Of a stretch of 64,000 nucleotides of DNA, positions 33,565-59,907 are shown one piece after another; position 1 is the stretch's first letter, and every line of letters begins with the position of its first letter. The translations under genes and the position numbers were made by a program. The notes under the pieces are model-generated. The model had not been told where the DNA came from. It ran no database searches and worked only from the letters and a program-made list of their open reading frames with translations. Source of the stretch: Pseudonocardiaceae bacterium. Lineage in GTDB: Bacteria; Actinomycetota; Actinomycetes; Mycobacteriales; Pseudonocardiaceae. Where the stretch lies: the NCBI GenBank assembly GCA_036501085.1, contig DASYAZ010000016.1:8954-72953 (forward strand), in the 5' to 3' direction.

Positions 33565-36231
<2,667 letters not shown>

Positions 36232-50946: not shown

Positions 50947-51756
50947 GTGCCGGATCAGCGAGACACCTACACCCACGGTCATCACGACAGCGTATTGCGA
51001 TCGCACCGGTGGCGGACGGTGTCCAACTCCGCAGCGTACCTGGTCCCACACCTGCACCCGGACCAGCGGATTCTGGATGTGGGCTGCGGCCCCGGCACCA
51101 TCACCATGGACCTGGCCCGGACAGTCGCGCCCGGCCAGGTGGTGGGCATCGACAACGAGCCGGCGCCACTGGAATGGGCGCGCACCGAGGCCGCCGCGCA
51201 GGATGTGGCCAACGTGTCCTTCGTGACAGGTGAGATCTACCGGCTGGAGTTCCCGGATGGCGCGTTCGACGTCGTCCACGCGCATCAGGTATTGCAGCAT
51301 CTGACCCAGCCGGTCGCCGCTTTCCGCGAGATGCGCCGGGTGTGCAGGCCGGGCGGGATCGTGGCCGCCCGGGACGCCGACTACGCGGCGATGGCCTGGT
51401 ACCCAGGCGACGCGCGGCTGGACCGCTGGCTGGAGCTGTACCGGCGTATCGCGCGCAGCAACCGGGCCGAACCCGACGCCGGGCGGCGGTTGCTGGCCTG
51501 GGCGCAAGCCGCCGGTTTCGCCGAGATCACCAGCTCAGCCGGCGTCTGGTGTTACGCCACACCGGAGGAACACGCCTGGTGGGGTGGCCTGTGGGCGGAC
51601 CGGATCACCCACTCCGCCCTCGCCACCCAAGCCCTGGACCGCCACCTGGCCACCCGAGAGGACCTGAACGACATGGCGCAGGCCTGGCACCACTGGTCCA
51701 ACCAGGACGACGGATGGTTCGCCGTCCTCCACGGCGAGGTCCTGTGCCACACCTGA
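50947..51756 (+). CDS. Class I SAM-dependent methyltransferase (UbiE/COQ5-like)
   Basis: ILDVGCGPGTITMDLA motif I, VVHAHQVLQHL, GGIVAARD. Confidence 0.85.
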   Translation: MPDQRDTYTHGHHDSVLRSHRWRTVSNSAAYLVPHLHPDQRILDVGCGPGTITMDLARTVAPGQVVGIDNEPAPLEWARTEAAAQDVANVSFVTGEIYRLEFPDGAFDVVHAHQVLQHLTQPVAAFREMRRVCRPGGIVAARDADYAAMAWYPGDARLDRWLELYRRIARSNRAEPDAGRRLLAWAQAAGFAEITSSAGVWCYATPEEHAWWGGLWADRITHSALATQALDRHLATREDLNDMAQAWHHWSNQDDGWFAVLHGEVLCHT

Positions 51757-52069
51757 ATCCCTCCGCACACAGCACCTCGACACGCCCGCCTGGATGAGGG
51801 CTCCCGCCGACCAAAACTTCCAGCAGCTCACTGAGCGAGGGACCGCGGCTGCTACAGCCCGACCCCAAAGACAAGTCCTATCGCTAACACTACACACTGA
51901 ATCAACCATCTAGGCATGAGCGGATAGCGGCACTCCAGTGTCCAGAACGGGTTGCTCCCGCGCTACTTTGGTTGACGCCGCCGGGGTCACCAGTAACGCA
52001 ACAAACAATACTCCGCGCCTAGTTTACGATATGCTAGAATAAATCATCTACCCAGTATTCGGAGCACGC

Positions 52070-52687
52070 ATGTCACGACAGTCAGTAGTTGTTCAAATAG
52101 TCGAGCATATCTCGAAACAGATTGAGTCGGGGGGTTCACATCTGAGAGCGTGCCTGTCGGCCTTTTGCGAAGCAAAACCGAATCCCCGGGCGGTGTTAGA
52201 TCACTTAACGGGTCTCAACGCCAGCGACCAACAGGCCCTCTTCGACGGATCACATGAGACTACAACTCATTATAAATGGCTTCTCTATCGACAGTATTCA
52301 CCTTGGTTCACCCTATGGCTGCACGAGTACAAGCCGCGCCATTTGCAGCGGCTCGGGTACGCGCAAGTTCCACATAATCACCGGTACGACATTTCGTCAG
52401 TCATCCTAGCTGGCGGCTATGTCGCCAGCGCTTGGCAGCTCCTCGAGGACAACACAGTAGCGGCTACTCACGCGACACAGTTCCGCTTCGGCGACGTCAT
52501 ACAACTAAAGCATAATGAAATTCACAGCCTGGACAAGATCACGGAAGGCACGATAACATTAGTCGCGGAAGGCCATCGTATCAAGGGTGTCAGCCAGGCG
52601 TACTATCCAGGCCAGTCGCAGCCGCGACAATTCCCGGACTTCCCCCAACGGTGGCCGGAACTTGTCAGCCAGCTTGATCGTCACTAG
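52070..52687 (+). CDS. Cupin-like (double-stranded beta-helix, CDO/COG5553-like) protein in the low-GC island
   Basis: 205 aa. WFTLWLHEYKP...VPHNHRYDISSVILAGGY...EIHSL resembles the metal-binding HxH...H cupin pattern. GGAG SD. Assignment is tentative. Confidence 0.5.
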   Translation: MSRQSVVVQIVEHISKQIESGGSHLRACLSAFCEAKPNPRAVLDHLTGLNASDQQALFDGSHETTTHYKWLLYRQYSPWFTLWLHEYKPRHLQRLGYAQVPHNHRYDISSVILAGGYVASAWQLLEDNTVAATHATQFRFGDVIQLKHNEIHSLDKITEGTITLVAEGHRIKGVSQAYYPGQSQPRQFPDFPQRWPELVSQLDRH

Positions 52688-53396
52688 ACTCAAGGGTCCT
52701 CACCAGAGCCTGCACTTCTGGCGAAGCAAGCGAGACATTAATACATTCCCATAGGTGTAGGTTGGCATTTGCCCACTCCTCGTATCGACGTCGCGTCTCT
52801 TCGTCATAGAAGTAGATGCCTCTATCACGAAGTCGCACCTGGTCACGAAGGATCCGATCACACAATTCACGAATACTCTGACCTGTCTCCTCCATGTACT
52901 TATGTGCGAGAAGTACGGGAGTTATCGGCAGAGCCTTGAACAAGGTATCGGCATCGCTTAGCGCCTGCGCCTCTAGGCACGCGTGTTCGTCACGCGACTC
53001 TGTCTCCGCCTCAGAGATGACTTGCTCAATGCGGTCAACTAGCCATTCGCTTATACCAAGATCACCCAAGAGCTGTGCGCGCATCTGGCAAGCGACAGTA
53101 GCGCGCGAATTCCGCTGCAGCATGTAGTTCAGATCATGCAACAGTGCAGCTGCCTCGACAATCGTTACGTCAGCATTGTTCTTCAGCGCGAGGCTTACCG
53201 CCTTTGTCCGAACAAACTCGACGTGATGCCAACCATGAAAGGGCAATCCGGAAGCGAATTCCTGATACTGCCGCCGAACGGCGTGTTCGATCCGGCGAAG
53301 GGTCGCGGCCGTCAGCCCAATGCTGTCTCCAGAGAAGTCCACGTCGTCAATATCCGAGCGTTCGTAGGAACTCGCGGAGGCTTTTGCCGTATACAT
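52665..53396 (-). CDS. HD-domain phosphohydrolase in the low-GC island
   Basis: FHGWHHVEFV ... AALLHDLNY ... LSDADTLFK gives the H..HD..D pattern. An alternative GTG start at 53342 would remove the 50-nt overlap with the upstream gene. Confidence 0.7.
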   Translation of the reverse strand: MYTAKASASSYERSDIDDVDFSGDSIGLTAATLRRIEHAVRRQYQEFASGLPFHGWHHVEFVRTKAVSLALKNNADVTIVEAAALLHDLNYMLQRNSRATVACQMRAQLLGDLGISEWLVDRIEQVISEAETESRDEHACLEAQALSDADTLFKALPITPVLLAHKYMEETGQSIRELCDRILRDQVRLRDRGIYFYDEETRRRYEEWANANLHLWECINVSLASPEVQALVRTLESSDDQAG

Positions 53397-53745
53397 CGTA
53401 GCTGGCCCTCATCTTGGTCAGGTCACCGGCGTCAAACCTCTTGCCTGTGAGTGTTGTTAGATGCGCAAGCAGGTCGACATCTGCGTGCCGAGACTCGAAG
53501 CTTACCTTCCTCTCTGAAACCTCAAATCTCCGGGTCATCTCCTCCCGTAGTACCAGATAACACATCGACTCGCTACTAAATTGGACAGACTCTGGCATCT
53601 CCTTGCCAGCAGATTGCGGGCCATGGTACCAGGAAAGGAACACGGCATTGTCGGTTAGCTCCATCCGGTAAACGACCGTGTCGTTGGTGTAGACGATGTG
53701 AACCGGACACGACGTTCTGAAATCAAACAGAGAAACGATGGTCAT
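53347..53745 (-). CDS. Hypothetical protein (132 aa) in the low-GC island
   Basis: Protein-like composition, no motif recognised. Starts 2 nt after an upstream stop (TAG AG ATG). Confidence 0.5.
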   Translation of the reverse strand: MTIVSLFDFRTSCPVHIVYTNDTVVYRMELTDNAVFLSWYHGPQSAGKEMPESVQFSSESMCYLVLREEMTRRFEVSERKVSFESRHADVDLLAHLTTLTGKRFDAGDLTKMRASYDVYGKSLREFLRTLGY

Positions 53746-53880
53746 CTCTACTCTTTTCGGAAACGCTCATCAATTTGAGCCAACGTCAATCCTGACGAGC
53801 TTGCCCACTTTTCACGATCTGCCGCGCGTCGTATAATCGAAGAATCCAAGCCTGGATCGATCATGCTTACTCGGACCGCA

Positions 53881-54378
53881 CTAGGGCATCTGGGCACCAT
53901 TCGTAGTCGTGCTGCCACATACCTGGCACTGGGGACCATAAAAGTCATAGACTGGGCTGCCGTTGAGGCTCTCCATGAGCGCCTGATTGAATGCCACGCC
54001 GAAGGTCTGCGATGCTGGATACTCTGCAACCGGCAGATAACGCGGATGCAATTCCCCGATCCTCTTGAAAACCTCTTCCCCTTGGCGCTGCAATGTTTCA
54101 TCAAGTGCATCGCGCTGGTTGCGGTCGAGTACCCAAGTGGCGAAAGCGGCAAATACGAGGGCGAAAAGCGCGGACGCGATCAAGTTGAGACCGAGAGCAA
54201 AACGCGCCTCAGAGGATCCGATGTCGCCGTTGCCGATGACGAGCACAAGTCCGATCAATAAAGCGACAACGACGGCGAATGCTGTCGCGTAGAGTGATAG
54301 CCAGCGGCGAGCCCACACTGCGGGGGCTTCGCTGCGATCGCTGTTCGGTCGCGACGTTTTCCTCCTCATCGGCACCAC
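53881..54378 (-). CDS. Membrane-anchored hypothetical protein in the low-GC island (possible frameshift into 53748..53880)
   Basis: Basic N-terminus, two hydrophobic helices (WLSLYATAFAVVVALLIGLVLVI; ALGLNLIASALFALVFAAFATWVL), then a soluble part. A different frame stays open down to 53748 and ends exactly at the next gene. Confidence 0.5.
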   Translation of the reverse strand: MVPMRRKTSRPNSDRSEAPAVWARRWLSLYATAFAVVVALLIGLVLVIGNGDIGSSEARFALGLNLIASALFALVFAAFATWVLDRNQRDALDETLQRQGEEVFKRIGELHPRYLPVAEYPASQTFGVAFNQALMESLNGSPVYDFYGPQCQVCGSTTTNGAQMP

Positions 54379-54561
54379 CTTGTCCTTGTCAGGCTTGCAA
54401 TGCTATCGACGACGGCCGCAGAGGTCGTTCCGGCTCTTGTGGACGTTCGGAGTGGGTCCACTGAGTTCTGCCGGGACGGGCACGTGGGCGGTCCGCCAAG
54501 AGCACCACGTACCGTCCGAGACTGCGCTCGGGATGGGGCGGCCCCGACCGGCCGCCCCCAT

Positions 54562-54625
54562 CCCGACATGGAGACATATCGGGGTATACGAGGGCCGTTT
54601 GACCCCGATATGTCTCCATGTCGGG
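54562..54625. repeat. Palindromic repeat element, copy 2 (perfect 24-nt arms, 16-nt loop)
   Basis: cccgacatggagacatatcggggt-atacgagggccgtttg-accccgatatgtctccatgtcggg. It lies between the low-GC island and the histidine kinase stop. Confidence 0.85.
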
Positions 54626-54633
54626 GAAAGGGG

Positions 54634-55653
54634 TTAGTCGGGGGCGAGGGGGAGGAGGACTTCGAAGCGGCAGCCGGGGCCGTGGTTGGTGGCTGCGACC
54701 CGGCCGCAGTGGGCTTCGACCAGGCCTTTCGTGATGGCTAGGCCCAGGCCGGCACCGGATTCACCGGCAGGCACCGGAGTGCGTGCGGCGTTGCCGCGGT
54801 AGCCGATGTCGAAGACCCGGTCCAGGTCGGTCTCCGGAATGCCACCACACCCGTCATCGACCCGCAGCCAGGCCTGCCCGTCGCGAGCTCCCGCCGCAAC
54901 CACCACGGTGCCATCCGGCGGCGTGTGCCGGATGGCGTTGGACAGCAGGTTGCGCACCACCCGGGCCAGCTCGGGGTCGCTACCCTGGACCACCGGCCAG
55001 TCGCTGCCGGCATCGGCCTGCAGCCGGACACCCTTATGCGCGGCGGTGGCCGCTTCGGCGGCCACCGCCTCGGAGACGACCTCGCCCAGCGGGATTGCGG
55101 ACAGCGTCAGTTGCAGCGCCCCGGAGCTGATCCGGGAGAGCTGGAACAGATCGTCGACCATGCCGCTGAGCCGCTGGGTCTGCTGCCCGATGCGGTGCGC
55201 GTAGGTAGCCACCTCGGCCGGGTCGGTCACGACGCGGTCAGCCAGCGCCTCGGTCATCGCGCGGATCCCGGCCAGCGGGGTGCGCAGGTCGTGGCTGATC
55301 CAGGCGACCAGCTCGCGCCGGGCCGCTTCGGCCGCCCGATCCCGGGCGTGGGCTTCCCGCTGCCAGGTCACCTCCTGCGCGATGGCGCGCCCCAGCAACA
55401 GCCCGGCCGGCACGGTCACCGCGGCGACCGCGGCGGCCACCGCGAGCTCGGTGGTCAGCACCGGTCCGAACATCCACCCGTTGACCCCGAGCACCCCGGC
55501 CAGGGTCGCGACCACCGGCACGAGCACCAGCACGGTCACCGCCGCAGTGATCGAGTACCGGCGCATGCGGTGCAGCAGCAGCGCGCCGAGCAGCGCCACC
55601 GGCAGGGTGCACAGCAGCGCGACCAGGCCGACGTGGCGCAGTTCGTCGAGCAC
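54634..55653 (-). CDS. Sensor histidine kinase (HisKA plus HATPase_c), two TM helices
   Basis: H-box [14 protein letters not shown]-box [15 protein letters not shown]-boxes VDDGCGGIP and GAGLGLAI. Start set to GTG 55653, 8 nt after GAGGAG; GTG 55662 is also possible. Confidence 0.85.
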
Positions 55654-55666
55654 CGCGCTCACTCCT

Positions 55667-56407
55667 CTATCTGATTGCCGGCTCAGCCGGCGGCATCTGA
55701 TTTGCCGGCTCAGCCGGCGCGCGGTCGTAGCGGTAGCCCACTCCCCACACCGTGGCGATCCGCCGGGGTGCGGTGGCGTCGACCTCCACCTTCTCCCGTA
55801 ACCGCCGCACATGCACGGTCACCGTGGAGTGGTCTCCGAAGGTCCAGCCCCACACCTGCTCCAGCAGTTCGCTGCGGGTGAAGGCCCGGTCCGGGTGCTG
55901 GATGAGGAAGGCCAGCAGGTCGAACTCCCGCACGGTGAGCGCCAGCTCCCGGCCGCCCCACACGGCGCGACGGCCGGCGATATCGACTACCAGATCACCG
56001 TCGATGACCGGCGGTACCTGGATCACCGGCTGCGCAGACCGGGCCCGGCGGAGCACCGATCCCACCCGCAGCACCAGCTCCCGGGGGCTGAACGGTTTGG
56101 TGATGTAGTCATCGGCACCCATTTCCAGCCCGAGGATGCGGTCCTCCTCCTCGCCCAGCGCGGTGAGCATCACCACCGGTACCGGGCCCGCGGCCCGTAA
56201 CTGCCGGCACACCTCCAGCCCGGGCAGCCCGGGCAGCATGAGATCGAGTACCACCAGGTCGGGCGGGGTCGCCTCAGCCGCGCGCAGCGCCTGCTCACCG
56301 TCGCCGGCCACCGTGACCCGGTAACCGGCACGGCCGAGGTACCGACTGACCACGTCGCGCACCAGCACGTCGTCGTCGACGACCAGCACCGCCCCGGCCG
56401 CGCTCAC
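55667..56407 (-). CDS. OmpR-family response regulator
   Basis: VLVVDDD...[11 protein letters not shown]...ITKPF receiver, and a winged-helix C-terminus ([19 protein letters not shown]). GTG 56407 overlaps the upstream TGA. The C-terminus carries a 27-nt tandem duplication. Confidence 0.88.
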
Positions 56408-56871
56408 CGGGCACCGCGCGGAGCGGAACTGGCGTGCGCCATGGTCGCCCGCACCGTCAGGATGACAGCGGAGATCACGAAGAGCGTCGCGGTCACGGCC
56501 AGCCAGCGGGGCAGGAACGGTTGCGCCGACAAGCCGGAGGCCGTGTGGTACGAGGCCGAGGACAGTTGCAGGATCAGCGGGGACCAGACCAGCAACAGCA
56601 ATCCGGAGATCACCGCGGGCACCCGCAGGTAGTTCAGCCACGGCACGCCGGCCACGGTAGCCAGCTCGGGGTGGCGGCGCAGCAGCAGCACCAGCGCGGC
56701 GTCCACCCCGGCGTACAGCGGGAAGAGCACGAGGTCGTGGACGACAGCACTGCCGACGAACCAGGCACCGGTCCCGATCGGGTGGCCGGCCAGCAACCGG
56801 AATCCGGCGTAGCCGGCGAGGAGGAAACTGGCCAGCAGCGCGAGCAGTTGGGTGATCTCGCGGCGGGTCAC
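56404..56871 (-). CDS. Integral membrane protein, translationally coupled between the Mo-oxidoreductase and the response regulator
   Basis: 155 aa from GTG 56871 (GTGA overlap with the upstream stop). 4-5 hydrophobic helices. Confidence 0.6.
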   Translation of the reverse strand: MTRREITQLLALLASFLLAGYAGFRLLAGHPIGTGAWFVGSAVVHDLVLFPLYAGVDAALVLLLRRHPELATVAGVPWLNYLRVPAVISGLLLLVWSPLILQLSSASYHTASGLSAQPFLPRWLAVTATLFVISAVILTVRATMAHASSAPRGAR

Positions 56872-58184
56872 TGCTGCCCCGCCGGAGGCTGGAACGTCAT
56901 CCGGGAGACCCACTTGGTGTTGTGCACGCCGGGCAGGGCCGGCACCACCACCCGGGCCGGGAAGCCGTGATCGGCGCTCAGGTCCGCGCCGTTGACCCGC
57001 AGAGCAAGCAACGCATCGGAAGCCCGCACCTGCCCCGCGGATAGCGTCGCCGAGCCGAAACCACCCCCGCGCTGCAAGGACTCGACGAACAAGGCGGCAT
57101 CCGGCCCGGCGCCGGCCAGGTCCGCGAGGTCAGCCAGCCGCACCCCGGTCCAGGTCTGCACGCCGGTGGACCAGCCCTCCACGCAGGCGATCGGCAACCG
57201 GGCGGTGTGCTGCGGCAGGGCGAGCAGCTGCGCGCGGGACAGCGCCACGCGCTGGGCGCCGGTGAGCTCCAACCGCCAGCTGGTATCGACCGATCCCACA
57301 CCCGCGTCGACGGCGGTCTTGTTCACCTGGAAATCAACCGGGCCCGCGCCGGTGCCCTGACCGCGGGGGGCCAGCAAGGCACTCGAGCGCGCCGCGCCGC
57401 CGATGCTCTGCCCCACGCTGAGCCCGAACAGGGCCAGCGAGCCGGCGGCCACCATTCCCAGCGCGCCGCGCCGGGAGATGGTCGGCGGGGCGGGATCGTC
57501 GGAGACCAGATGATCGGGATCAGCCTGCCCTGAGGCCTCGGCGACGGTCTGGCTCACCGGGGTGCGCAATTCCTGGCGCAGGCTGCGGGCCCGCAGCGCG
57601 CTGACCATCCGGGGCAACCGGAATGCCACATGCACGACGAACGCGGCGATGAACACCCAGGCCCCGTAGTAGTGCGCCTGGTAGAAACCGAACGGCCATG
57701 CGTAGTAGTACTGGATGTTCATCACCCCAGTGACCAGCTCGAACACCGCACCACCGACGAGCAGCAGCAGCGAAGCGCGCTCGACGAGGTGGGTGAGCGA
57801 GCGGGCCGGCGGCCACTCGAACAGCTTGGGCAGCACCGACCACAGCTTGGCCAGCACGATCGGGATGAGCACCAGCCCGAGTGTCACGTGCACGCCCTGG
57901 GTCACCCAGTACAGCCAGGACGGTCCGGCCGGCCAGCCCGGCAGCCAGGAACCGAGCAGCCCCTTGTCGGGGGTGGTGTCGTTGCCCGGCGCCAGGTTGG
58001 GGTTATAGGCGGCGTAGGAGGCCAGGCCGGTAAGGAACATCAGCGTGATACCGGGGAGCAGCGCCGCGCTGAGCACCGCGGTGAACCACGGGCCACGCAG
58101 CGGGCTGCGCCAGAACCCGGGCCGGAACGGACCCGGCGGGCGATGCTCGGTGGCGCGATGAACCCACCGATCCAGCACGGTCAT
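56868..58184 (-). CDS. Membrane-anchored molybdopterin-dependent oxidoreductase (sulfite-oxidase/YedY-fold C-terminal domain)
   Basis: 438 aa. The N-terminal roughly 200 aa have 4-5 TM helices (cytochrome b/ferric-reductase-like) and the C-terminal part is a soluble oxidoreductase_molyb-like domain (CVEGWS motif). Confidence 0.7.
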   Translation of the reverse strand: MTVLDRWVHRATEHRPPGPFRPGFWRSPLRGPWFTAVLSAALLPGITLMFLTGLASYAAYNPNLAPGNDTTPDKGLLGSWLPGWPAGPSWLYWVTQGVHVTLGLVLIPIVLAKLWSVLPKLFEWPPARSLTHLVERASLLLLVGGAVFELVTGVMNIQYYYAWPFGFYQAHYYGAWVFIAAFVVHVAFRLPRMVSALRARSLRQELRTPVSQTVAEASGQADPDHLVSDDPAPPTISRRGALGMVAAGSLALFGLSVGQSIGGAARSSALLAPRGQGTGAGPVDFQVNKTAVDAGVGSVDTSWRLELTGAQRVALSRAQLLALPQHTARLPIACVEGWSTGVQTWTGVRLADLADLAGAGPDAALFVESLQRGGGFGSATLSAGQVRASDALLALRVNGADLSADHGFPARVVVPALPGVHNTKWVSRMTFQPPAGQQ

Positions 58185-58219
58185 GCCACTACGCTAGCGT
58201 TATTGCAGGTGAGGAGGGC

Positions 58220-58861
58220 TTACCGTCCGCTTACGTGAAGCAGCTCGATGAAGCAGCGGCCCGCGCGGTAGCGCTCCCCGGCCTGCAGACCGGCCACCCC
58301 GGCGATGGCGGCCAGCGCGGGTAGCCCGGCCACCGCCCACGGGAACCAGGGTCCCGCGGCGCTGCCGGAAATCTGAAGCCTGGCCGCCCCCCGCCACAAC
58401 CCGGCAACCGGATGTTCCGCCGCCTCGACCAGCATGGTCCCCCCGCGCCGGAGCAAGGCAGCGCAGCGGCGCAGCAGCCGCACCGGGTCACCGCCGATGC
58501 CGATGTTGCCATCGGCCAGCAGGACGTGGTGCCACCGTCCCTCACCGGGCAACGTGGCGAACACGTCGCGGTGCAGCACTGCGGCACCCCGGGAGTGGCA
58601 TTGTCGGACCGCCCACGGCGAGCAGTCCACCCCCAGCGCCGGGACGCCGCGCCCGGTGAGCTCGGCGACCAACCGACCCGGGCCGCACCCCAGGTCCACC
58701 GTCGGTCCGGTGCAGCGGTTCAGCAGCCAGCTGTCCTCCCCCGCGGCCGGAGCCAGCCATCGCTGGGGAGCCACCGGCAGCACCCGCCCGTCATCGCCGA
58801 TGAGCTGGGCGGACCGGCTGACCAGGGCCGGATCGAAGACCGCGGTGTGCCCGGCGATCAC
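58220..58861 (-). CDS. Class I SAM-dependent methyltransferase
   Basis: TVDLGCGPGRLVAEL motif I. GTGA overlap with the upstream gene. Confidence 0.8.
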   Translation of the reverse strand: MIAGHTAVFDPALVSRSAQLIGDDGRVLPVAPQRWLAPAAGEDSWLLNRCTGPTVDLGCGPGRLVAELTGRGVPALGVDCSPWAVRQCHSRGAAVLHRDVFATLPGEGRWHHVLLADGNIGIGGDPVRLLRRCAALLRRGGTMLVEAAEHPVAGLWRGAARLQISGSAAGPWFPWAVAGLPALAAIAGVAGLQAGERYRAGRCFIELLHVSGR

Positions 58862-59637
58862 CGGTGGATCTCCAACGCGGCCACCGCGGCGGCGAAGCGG
58901 CCACCGGGCGCACCGGCTGCCACCATGGCAGCGTCCGCCCAGGTGTCCACATCGGAGAGTTCAGGCAGATCGGCCACCCGGCATCCGGAGGCCCGCAGCG
59001 CGGCCAGGGTCTGCTCCCCGGTGTCCGGGCAGGACGTCGGAACTCCGGCGATCAGCTCCGCGAGCTCGGGATGCCGTACCCCGAGAATCCACCACCCGCC
59101 ATCACAGGCCGGCCCGAGCGCGGCATCCACGCCATCCCCGTCGAGCACGTCGAGGCAGTGGTTCAACAGCGCCGCATCGACCTGCGGGGTGTCCATGCCG
59201 ATCTGCAGCACCGGGCGGTGGCCGGCCACCGCGGCGGTGTCGGCGTAGGCGGCGGCGATCCGCTGGCCCAGCGTCACACCACGCTGCGGCAACACCGTGG
59301 TGTTGCGCAGTTGCTCGGCCAATGCGGCACCGTCCACCGCGCGAGCCAGATCGCCGGTGAGCGCCACCACCGGCGCCACGTCCGGCACCGCCAGCACCGC
59401 ATCCAGGGTGTCCCGAAAGGCCGCTGCGGCGATCCGGGCGGCCTGCTCAGCGGTGGCCGGGGGACACATCCGGGTCTTGACCTCCCCCGGTACCGGTGCC
59501 TTGGCGAGCACCAGCAGCACCGCGCGCGGGGCGGTCAGCGCCGCGCTCCGATTCCTTCGTGCCGCGGTGCGGTTCCCTCCTGCCAGGGCAGTACCACCTG
59601 GACACGCTGCATGACGATCACCCCTCGCCTCCCACAT
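58858..59637 (-). CDS. DUF2064 (TIGR04282-like, nucleotidyl/glycosyltransferase-fold) protein; true start probably GTG about 59520
   Basis: VLLVLAKAPVPGEVKTRMCPP is the canonical DUF2064 N-terminus. The 39 upstream codons of the track ORF look non-coding. Confidence 0.7.
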   Translation of the reverse strand: MWEARGDRHAACPGGTALAGGNRTAARRNRSAALTAPRAVLLVLAKAPVPGEVKTRMCPPATAEQAARIAAAAFRDTLDAVLAVPDVAPVVALTGDLARAVDGAALAEQLRNTTVLPQRGVTLGQRIAAAYADTAAVAGHRPVLQIGMDTPQVDAALLNHCLDVLDGDGVDAALGPACDGGWWILGVRHPELAELIAGVPTSCPDTGEQTLAALRASGCRVADLPELSDVDTWADAAMVAAGAPGGRFAAAVAALEIHR

Positions 59638-59907
59638 TGCGGGATATTGTCCCCCATCGCCAGCGTCGCTGACCCTTGCCTCTCGGTGACATTCGGCGAG
59701 CGACCAGCGCAGAGTTCACCGCGGCTCACTTCCCCCTGCTTCTCCTCCCGGAGGGAGGTGCGCGCCGGCGCCCGCTCGTAGCGTGCTAGGGCGGCTCAGA
59801 TGATCACGAAATCAGGCACGGCGCAGGTGACCAACCCGAGTACCAGCTCCAGCCGGACCGCAACCTAGCACTGGATCTGTTTGCGGGACACCGGGGCAGC
59901 CGGGAGA

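Follow-up and report, generated by a model that had tools for sequence, protein, structure and literature searches.

Several described bacterial systems are relevant to the locus reported here, and each of them resembles only part of it. Among HD-domain enzymes, YpgQ is a Mn-dependent (d)NTP pyrophosphohydrolase, while the diiron HD oxygenases are characterized by the six-ligand motif H...HD...H...H...D (PMC8177086). PhnY/PhnZ and TmpA/TmpB, which take part in phosphonate breakdown, pair a non-haem iron oxygenase with an HD oxygenase, and as in the locus described below, a cupin-type iron enzyme and an HD protein are encoded in one operon. Thiol dioxygenases are formed by N-terminal helices and a cupin barrel; proteins with the phospholipase D (PLD) fold include nucleases as well as non-catalytic domains. 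Finally, in one-component proteins and in the sensor-effectors of nucleotide-based immunity, one soluble domain is found with interchangeable N-terminal outputs. The locus in question lies in a stretch of 64,000 nucleotides (hereafter the window; all coordinates refer to it) from contig DASYAZ010000016.1 of a Pseudonocardiaceae bacterium, the source being a metagenome-assembled genome (MAG). It is a low-GC island (51860..54450) that consists of a three-gene module and its two promoter-side spacers. The module is formed by gene A (53347..54378, minus strand), which in relatives encodes a single protein of 321–357 residues and is a pseudogene here; gene B (52665..53396, minus strand), an intact gene for a 243-residue HD-domain phosphohydrolase of the YpgQ/YedJ-like type; and gene C (52070..52687, plus strand), an intact gene for a 205-residue 3-His cupin with a thiol-dioxygenase-like fold.

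The explanation that best accounts for the evidence, to which we give a probability of roughly 0.5, is that the island is an acquired copy of an operon that would encode a ligand-sensing membrane protein and two metalloenzymes acting on a nucleotide-like molecule, and that this copy has been disabled in the window lineage. The structural part of this explanation, that is, an island of three genes, one of them broken and none of them an orphan, is very likely correct. Judged from gene order and family comparisons, the triad appears to be an undescribed conserved three-gene operon of actinobacteria.

Relatives of B were searched for with one genome per species and were found in 325 species genomes. 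Locus analyses were carried out on the best 80 of these 325, and gene order was established from hidden Markov model (HMM) scans of these 80 genome loci and of 80 metagenome loci. Nearly all of the best 80 B-carrying genomes belong to the Pseudonocardiaceae, including Amycolatopsis, Actinokineospora, Saccharothrix, Actinosynnema, Lentzea, Kibdelosporangium, Actinophytocola and other genera; the same set also includes Jatrophihabitantaceae, Glycomyces and one Rhodococcus. The three genes stand next to one another in all loci with enough sequence (139/139). B is always encoded with A and C, a linkage that has not been reported for YpgQ. The order is A>C>B> in 134 of these loci (arrowheads give the direction of each gene), and in the other five (the window, L004, L005, L033 and L087) it is A>B>C<, B and C overlapping at their 3' ends. 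No fourth gene consistently linked to the triad was found in these loci. Around the main-family module, ctaB (UbiA), tkt, tal, PGI (pgi), G6PD (zwf) and ctaA recur as neighbours in up to 38 of the 80 genomes; such a conserved core region points to vertical inheritance. Likewise, the GC content of the module is close to that of its flanks in this family (median difference -0.03). The A and C families have no Pfam or NCBIfam model. The triad is thus far without a reported function, although its three genes are strictly linked and it occurs in 325 or more species genomes, commonly in the antibiotic-producing genera Amycolatopsis, Saccharothrix, Actinokineospora, Lentzea and Kibdelosporangium.

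The most prominent feature of the copy in the window is the state of gene A. On other contigs, the homologues of the HD protein are preceded by one gene of 328–350 codons, with a gene of ~205 codons alongside, and 15 of 15 homologues of A are uninterrupted single open reading frames (ORFs) of 321–357 residues. In the window, this region is covered by three ORFs on the minus strand. The first is a 165-residue ORF (53881..54378) that corresponds to the N-terminal piece of A, with two hydrophobic helices; it has about 149 homologous residues followed by 16 out-of-frame residues and a stop codon, and the hydrophobic stretches, read from the sequence, are WLSLYATAFAVVVALLIGLVLVIG and ALGLNLIASALFALVFAAFATWVL. 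The middle piece (53751..53939) is the C-terminal part of a 134-residue ORF (54152..53748) and contains around 60 codons that are conserved in the other frame only. The last is a 132-residue ORF (53347..53745), which runs from the second half of the PLD-like domain through the terminal helices. The N- and C-terminal pieces lie in one reading frame and the middle piece in another, and the breaks between them can be located. At 53931..53934 the coding strand has a run of four C where three are needed (GGT CCC AGT, for G-P-S), and at 53748..53751 one base has been lost (GAG-TA-GAG-ATG, not GAG-NTA-GAG-NTG); this second frameshift yields a TAG stop codon and the return to the first frame.

Several comparisons indicate that these pieces belong together. 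A homologue of 350 residues aligns over positions 54315..53350 of the window (tblastn), and in a multiple alignment the three ORFs tile P0158, the closest intact homologue, with 61%, 78% and 75% identity, respectively; the family-A HMM matches the middle piece with E = 2e-28. In addition, P0194, a partial protein from another metagenome that falls in the same 90%-identity cluster as the 132-residue piece and is more than 90% identical to the window, crosses both breaks intact (YDFYGP-SARYV and RFRKE-LE-VTIV). Because the ORFs tile one protein, the homologues are uninterrupted and P0194 spans both breaks, gene A of the window is a recently disrupted gene, and the membrane-anchored protein and the orphans described in the original prediction are its fragments. 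The count of four or five genes with two orphans given there is therefore not sustained, since the 165-, 134- and 132-residue ORFs are pieces of one gene. The term orphan fits none of the families: a word-indexed search gave more than 825 homologues for B and 37 for C, and family A comprises 388 clusters at 50% identity. The NCBI record of the MAG carries two fragments of A annotated as hypothetical, the 132-residue piece being HEY3894093.1. Compared with P0194, the window A also shows two substitutions, F to L in VFFSWYHGP and Q to L in YYQVL, at positions that are conserved elsewhere; these are weak evidence of relaxed constraint.

Given that the window comes from a MAG and that the first frameshift falls within a short homopolymer run, the island or the frameshifts of A could be explained as an artefact of assembly, through a chimeric join or indel errors. 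This explanation is extremely improbable. The island is found with the same junctions, gap-free and with 99.4–100% identity, in the separate assemblies L001, L002, L003 and L171; contigs assembled independently by JGI, Logan and NCBI contain the same junctions and the same frameshifted sequence of A. Moreover, the left junction, adjoining the methyltransferase gene, is shared by L171 and by L172, which is 94.8% identical in DNA, and the second frameshift lies outside any homopolymer. In view of these gap-free copies in separately assembled contigs, the island is not an assembly artefact.

Gene B was previously assigned to the HD-domain phosphohydrolases, and this assignment stands. The protein passes the Pfam model HD (PF01966) by a narrow margin, with 22.8 bits against a gathering cut-off of 22, and the family profile matches PDB entries 3DJB (E = 3.9e-9) and YpgQ 5DQV (E = 4.2e-8). 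The YpgQ/YedJ-like hydrolases (5DQV, 3DJB and 3GW7; PF01966) share the H..HD..D motif with B, and their structures match its profile along the first 120 residues, with E values between 3.9e-9 and 0.07. By contrast, the strongly conserved C-terminal 90 residues of B (TLFKALP..YFY..W..NL.LW) have no counterpart among the matches of the YpgQ/YedJ type. In an alignment of 188 sequences, conservation reaches 95% or more in 68 columns, and FHGWHH, H87-D88 and S147-D-A-D150 are invariant; accordingly, the predicted metal residues H57/H58, H87-D88 and D148/D150 (H...HD...D) are found in all 188 sequences. No conserved histidine was observed between H87-D88 and D148 in this alignment, so that the six-ligand H...HD...H...H...D motif is not present. 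From its residue pattern, B would be a hydrolase of the mononuclear type (H..HD..D), unlike the diiron HD oxygenases. When B was compared with its counterpart in L172, the ratio of nonsynonymous to synonymous substitution rates (dN/dS) was 0.131 over 161 shared codons. Two start codons are candidates for B. With the ATG at 53396, B would share 50 nt with the 3' end of A and have N-terminal residues similar to those of its closest homologue, P0002; the alternative GTG at 53342 is located 4 nt past the stop codon of A, with the same spacing as in L004 and L005.

Gene C is preceded by a GGAG sequence 6 nt ahead of its ATG codon, and the earlier description of its product as cupin-like is supported by an AlphaFold2 model with a predicted local distance difference test (pLDDT) score of 95.4. 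A Foldseek search with this model gave 374 PDB matches at E <= 1e-3, with cupins leading, and the model forms the double-stranded beta-helix barrel. The best matches are 8VNI, 3USS, 6XB9 and rat CDO, that is, mercaptosuccinate, 3-mercaptopropionate, cysteine and ergothioneine dioxygenases, with E values from 4e-8 and template-modelling (TM) scores of 0.6–0.69. The fold of C is the same as that of the thiol dioxygenases, with N-terminal helices and a cupin barrel, and the HxH...H set aligns: in an alignment of 119 sequences H67, H85, H102, H104 and H152 are invariant or nearly so, and H102, H104 and H152 align with the metal-ligand motifs HNH and IHS of the mercaptosuccinate dioxygenase 8VNI (profile E = 0.11). 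However, sequence identity to the thiol dioxygenases is only 9–18%, and C has no significant match to a Pfam cupin, CDO or ADO model. Searches with C against Pfam and NCBIfam gave no match, and for the window protein none was obtained even at Pfam E <= 1, including CDO_I and PCO_ADO; in its family, 3 of 37 members touch Pfam Cupin_2, at E >= 0.024. The invariant residues specific to the family are T66, H67, W70, W83, H85, Y87 and R105, and its own motifs THYKW, WLHxYK and PHNHRY differ from those of CDO. The strand that follows H152 reads TxTLVxE, with T161 invariant, and the Ser-His-Tyr triad is not evident by eye. The dN/dS value of C against L172 is 0.107, and together with the value for B it shows that both genes, which are intact, have been under purifying selection. 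Concerning database records, the product of 205 residues is recorded only from Logan and a shorter call of 164 residues only from JGI; the NCBI record of the MAG seemingly has no entry for C, as HEY3894091 (methyltransferase) is followed by HEY3894092 (HD protein).

A catalytic pair of the PhnY/PhnZ type was considered for C and B and was rejected, as B lacks the diiron ligand set. In comparison with PhnY/PhnZ and TmpA/TmpB, B is devoid of the H..HD..H..H..D arrangement, and the putative metal site of C is of the 3-His type, not the 2-His-1-carboxylate of the 2-oxoglutarate enzymes.

The fold of protein A was approached through P0158. In the model of this homologue (pLDDT 84, built on 15 sequences), a long helical hairpin with two hydrophobic segments is followed by an alpha/beta domain and, at the end, by a helical bundle. 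The alpha/beta domain was matched by Foldseek to catalytic proteins of the PLD fold, i.e., Nuc (1BYR), NucT, Zucchini, PLD3/4 and F13, and also to the non-catalytic MITD1, FAM83B and the C-terminal domain of TrmBL2. These matches have E values from 5e-4 to 6e-2 and target-normalised TM scores of about 0.5, with a maximum of 0.54, and in a viral library the best structural matches were PLD-domain proteins too. Taken together, they lend modest strength to the view that the soluble domain of A has a PLD fold. The non-catalytic PLD-like domains (MITD1, FAM83 DUF1669 and the TrmBL2 C-terminal domain) and the PLD nucleases are thus the best PDB matches of A, which differs from PLD proteins in that it adds the two-helix membrane hairpin and the C-terminal helical bundle, and in that the HKD motif, HxK(x)4D, is absent. 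Across family A, no His or Lys residue is conserved: H250, a feature of the close clade, is not retained in the wider family, several arginines are conserved, and among 149 representatives only G146 and R236 reach 90% conservation. A role of A as a PLD nuclease or phospholipase was therefore rejected for the lack of the HKD motif. NCBIfam gave only sub-threshold matches for the window proteins; one of these, an acyl-carrier-protein-like match in the last 60 residues of A (NCBIfam E = 0.005; PDB profile E = 0.28), was discarded as unreliable.

A survey of family A, by a full HMMER search of 1.84 billion representative proteins with domain content taken from the best 149, showed that the 388 clusters mostly represent the membrane form of 320–360 residues. 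In a few representatives, the soluble domain of A is found behind a different N-terminal part: a SARP-type DNA-binding part (Trans_reg_C and BTAD) in 4 of 149, and an XRE helix-turn-helix (HTH), a cytidine/dCMP deaminase, DUF4062, a CD20-like membrane domain and AAA_16 in 1 of 149 each. One of these variants is encoded in L175:1035-3552, where the gene for a SARP-A fusion comes first, then that for a NUDIX hydrolase and last a homologue of C (E = 4.8e-53), successive genes sharing 4 nt; this group of genes adjoins an HTH/Peptidase_M78 gene and transposition genes of the Mu/IS21 type. Read from the gene order, NUDIX, which is another type of pyrophosphohydrolase, seems to stand here in the position of the HD protein. 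In L005, an ORF of 110 residues located just 3' of C (L005:3398-3730) contains an A-like motif (DFRGQSGKHLADRL) and matches the A profile weakly (E = 1.5e-5); it is possibly the remnant of a second A-type gene.

Since the enzyme partners are kept while the N-terminal part of A is swapped, the soluble domain of A may behave, by analogy, like the input domain of a one-component system. In the mechanism that we propose, B and C would act on one small molecule, probably bearing a nucleoside-(di)phosphate group, and the PLD-like soluble domain of A would bind this molecule or the product of B and C. The N-terminal part of A would give the output, mostly through the membrane hairpin and in a few proteins through a DNA-binding or enzyme domain. 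With A broken, the module would be unable to work as a triad in the window lineage. This proposal is based on the domain swaps of A, on the replacement of HD by NUDIX in L175 and on the hydrolysis of (d)NTPs by YpgQ. The model of a sensor with its enzymes is tentative, and the assignment of the substrate to a nucleotide-like class is held with even less assurance. Such a module could have a role in stress or metabolite signalling, or in defence. As in nucleotide-based immune systems, A is encoded beside enzymes that could make or remove its ligand; unlike in these systems, no nucleotide cyclase or other known signal-generating enzyme is present, and no PADLOC model is matched. If the model were true, bacterial signalling or immunity would gain a new sensor domain and a new pairing of enzymes; should it prove wrong, the triad is still a defined target for establishing the function of three conserved actinobacterial proteins.

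The thiol dioxygenases that head the structural matches of C, together with the phosphohydrolase type of B, bring up a different explanation: the triad could be an ordinary small-molecule operon for metabolism or detoxification, combining the oxidation of a thiol (mycothiol, ergothioneine or a mercapto-acid) with the hydrolysis of a phosphate ester, with A as an anchor or scaffold. The location of the main family in a core region, the strong conservation reflected in the 68 columns of B, and the purifying selection on B and C also agree with such a function. We nonetheless regard it as doubtful, for the triad lacks a consistent link to any transporter, regulator or additional enzyme of a pathway, C does not belong at the sequence level to the CDO or ADO families, and the fusions of the A domain to SARP, XRE, deaminase and DUF4062 suggest sensing and not scaffolding.

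The original prediction found the island reminiscent of small anti-phage or nucleotide-signalling modules, and the comparisons bear on this in both directions. In an anti-phage system of the abortive-infection type, A would be effector and sensor, and B and C would either produce, degrade or imitate a nucleotide signal or exhaust a pool of nucleotides. Consistent with this possibility, the module is compact, has a low GC content and has apparently been horizontally moved, and the gene inactivated in the window is the putative effector. Furthermore, one member of family A carries DUF4062 and another the deaminase in place of the membrane hairpin. DUF4062 is reportedly, from preprints of 2026, a TIR-like NADase used in phage defence; the Evangelion DUF4062 preprint makes no mention of PLD, cupin or HD. 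The genomic context offers two further examples: the L175 variant, with its HTH/Peptidase_M78 and Mu/IS21-type neighbours, and L087 (L087:3336-10403), where the triad has as neighbours a fragment of an IS110 transposase, a restriction-modification gene whose Pfam domains make it MmeI-like, an HTH gene and the gene for an 859-residue ATPase with a full-length match to the defence candidate PDC-S06 (E = 1.8e-160). However, L087 is the one locus with a defence-like context among five in the clade of the window, and the main family, being syntenic beside core metabolic genes across genera, does not resemble the patchy distribution of defence systems. Neither the five ORFs of the window nor six proteins related to A, B and C matched any model of PADLOC-DB 2.0; B had no match in viral contigs, neither B nor C in PLSDB, and C none in INPHARED. 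No paper joining cupin, HD domain, transmembrane protein and anti-phage was found in the literature. The triad thus does not appear to be a member of any catalogued defence system, and we consider the anti-phage function unlikely. The rare fusions and L087 speak for the resemblance that was originally noted, and the results from the defence, phage and plasmid collections and the core neighbours speak against it. A broader proposal would see in the triad an undescribed signalling module, with the HKD-less PLD-like domain of A as a new ligand sensor able to act through a membrane hairpin, a SARP or XRE part, a deaminase or a DUF4062 NADase, a cupin and an HD or NUDIX enzyme that make or erase its ligand, a mobile low-GC clade engaged in phage defence or conflict and a chromosomal Pseudonocardiaceae clade recruited to a housekeeping response; as a whole, this proposal is speculative and also unlikely.

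Several observations weigh against the explanation that we favour, of an acquired and now disabled operon for a ligand sensor and two enzymes. There is no ligand, substrate or phenotype on record for families A, B and C. The match of A to the PLD fold is modest, and the model behind it was built from only 15 sequences; the alternative architectures of A are rare (around 9 of 149 representatives), and the replacement by NUDIX is known from one locus. As regards C, the lack of a CDO-type Ser-His-Tyr triad recognisable by eye means that its chemistry may be other than on thiols. As regards A, ATG codons stand ahead of its middle and last pieces, and the three pieces could in principle be translated separately, but a PLD-like sheet divided into three chains would be unlikely to fold. 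Lastly, the acquisition is deduced from composition, tree position and context and not from presence or absence: the relatives with contigs long enough to include the site (L171 and L172) all have the island, no island-free state is seen in close relatives, and the contigs of other relatives with ~94.5% identity end inside the kinase gene. In agreement with the original description, no tRNA was found in the whole window, and no integrase or transposase family among the called genes within ~10 kb. For flanking direct or inverted repeats, only short matches at chance level were obtained, so that neither a mobility gene nor a tRNA or repeat accounts for the arrival of the island.

The composition of the island is clearly different from that of its surroundings. 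The GC content of 51860-54450 is 0.545, against 0.70–0.73 in the immediate flanks and 0.66 in the rest of the window, and no other 2.6-kb stretch of the window is lower. The abrupt fall that was first noticed by eye is thus real, although the figure of around 50% given for it was too low: the value is nearer to 54%, and only the local minima over 150 nt reach 0.45–0.52. The GC content at third codon positions (GC3) is also reduced: it is 0.57–0.66 in the ORFs of the island, whereas the methyltransferase and histidine-kinase genes on either side have 0.87 and the response-regulator gene has 0.79. The coordinates of the ORFs in that description were correct, and the two transcription units share 23 nt at their 3' ends (52665-52687). 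The island is flanked by the methyltransferase gene (50947-51756) on one side and by the genes of the two-component system, with the histidine kinase at 54634-55812, on the other. Its left composition boundary (~51860-51880) lies in the spacer 5' of C (51757..52069, plus strand), and the right one (~54400-54450) in the spacer 5' of A (54379..54561, minus strand). The spacer upstream of C is kept in L172 with small indels and does not resemble the DNA that flanks the other convergent copies. A promoter and terminator scan gave nothing beyond what is expected from shuffled sequences.

In a neighbour-joining tree of B, built without bootstrap, the window sequence belongs to a clade of 14 members, all from metagenomes, that is apart from the main family. 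The sister of this clade is L088, which is located at the ctaB-tkt site and has a homologue of C upstream of B on the same strand. The members of the clade with context (the window, L004, L005 and L087) all show the convergent order A>B>C<, and so does L033 from Glycomyces. In all five convergent copies, the GC content is 0.045 to 0.17 below that of the flanks; within the clade the values for module and flanks are 0.57/0.74, 0.63/0.68 and 0.51/0.63, and 0.54/0.70 in the window. Each of the five has different genomic neighbours, such as acyl-CoA dehydrogenase and FAD oxidase genes in L004, or NUDIX and AraC genes in L005, and the DNA similarity between them (64–68%) is restricted to the coding regions. 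No non-coding DNA common to the window island and the other convergent copies was found. Because the neighbours differ and the similarity ends at the coding regions, this has the appearance of a module that moved between genomes, although the viral, plasmid and phage collections yielded no vehicle for it. A horizontal origin of the window copy is likely, and the original description of a horizontally acquired accessory module is supported by the separate clade, the low GC content and the unrelated contexts. The opposite situation, in which the module is syntenic and conserved in relatives with a similar composition, is the one observed in the main family, and is not observed in the clade of the window. 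The island is older than a DNA divergence of ~5% within the window lineage.

The low GC content could also have a different cause. It may not reflect a recent transfer but have been kept in the clade, for example by a silencer of the Lsr2 type acting on AT-rich DNA, with the module being old at this site. All five convergent copies are below the GC of their hosts in spite of being around 35% apart in DNA; besides, the lack of mobility genes, tRNA and flanking repeats, and the presence of the island in lineages that are 94.8–99.4% identical, would fit a long residence. On the other hand, the copies are found in unrelated contexts and in different hosts, the main family occupies another, conserved site with a GC near that of the host, and the difference in GC3 between 0.57–0.66 and 0.87 is a very large departure for selection to maintain, which makes this explanation improbable. 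The search for additional members was less informative: a metagenome scan with the A alignment confirmed no locus, and in a scan with B the relatives among the matches listed all had <=54% identity, so that the clade of the window was not enlarged. A second triad copy of the native type was not found elsewhere in the window. For the window itself the outcome is mainly corrective, i.e., a foreign island that is real, with three genes, one of them dead. What is of wider interest is the conserved triad with the portable domain of A; to these the window adds little beyond the pseudogene.

A palindrome had been reported to the right of the island, and it is indeed present at 54562-54625, with arms of 24 nt; a second copy is found at 35346-35408. 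Both are perfect inverted repeats (CCCGACATGGAGACATATCGGGGT ... ACCCCGATATGTCTCCATGTCGGG) with a loop of 15–16 nt; the arms are kept between the two copies, while the loops and flanks differ. The copy near the island is located just past the stop codon of the histidine-kinase gene (54634), ahead of the promoter side of A. The palindrome may act as a terminator or as a site for protein binding, or may be a repeat element. In an Rfam scan of the island, the only result was a sub-threshold match to a plant microRNA on this palindrome, which is spurious.

Other features of the window were also observed. Between positions 1 and 22000, most windows of 500 nt have a GC content of 0.54–0.62, compared with ~0.70 elsewhere, which is a much larger anomaly than the island. 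In L169 and L170, which are ~94.5% identical to the window, the sequence is collinear with window positions 54866-59902; past ~59902 these two carry the FBPase gene glpX and CtaG, whereas the window organism has a peptidase S8 gene, as does L001. Position ~59902 is thus a further boundary of rearrangement or insertion. Finally, the 3' part of the methyltransferase gene next to the island (window 51357-51756 compared with L172:2-400) has a dN/dS of 1.29 over ~130 codons, in contrast with values of ~0.1 for the island genes; this may be due to a local frameshift, to a problem of the alignment or to a real relaxation of constraint.

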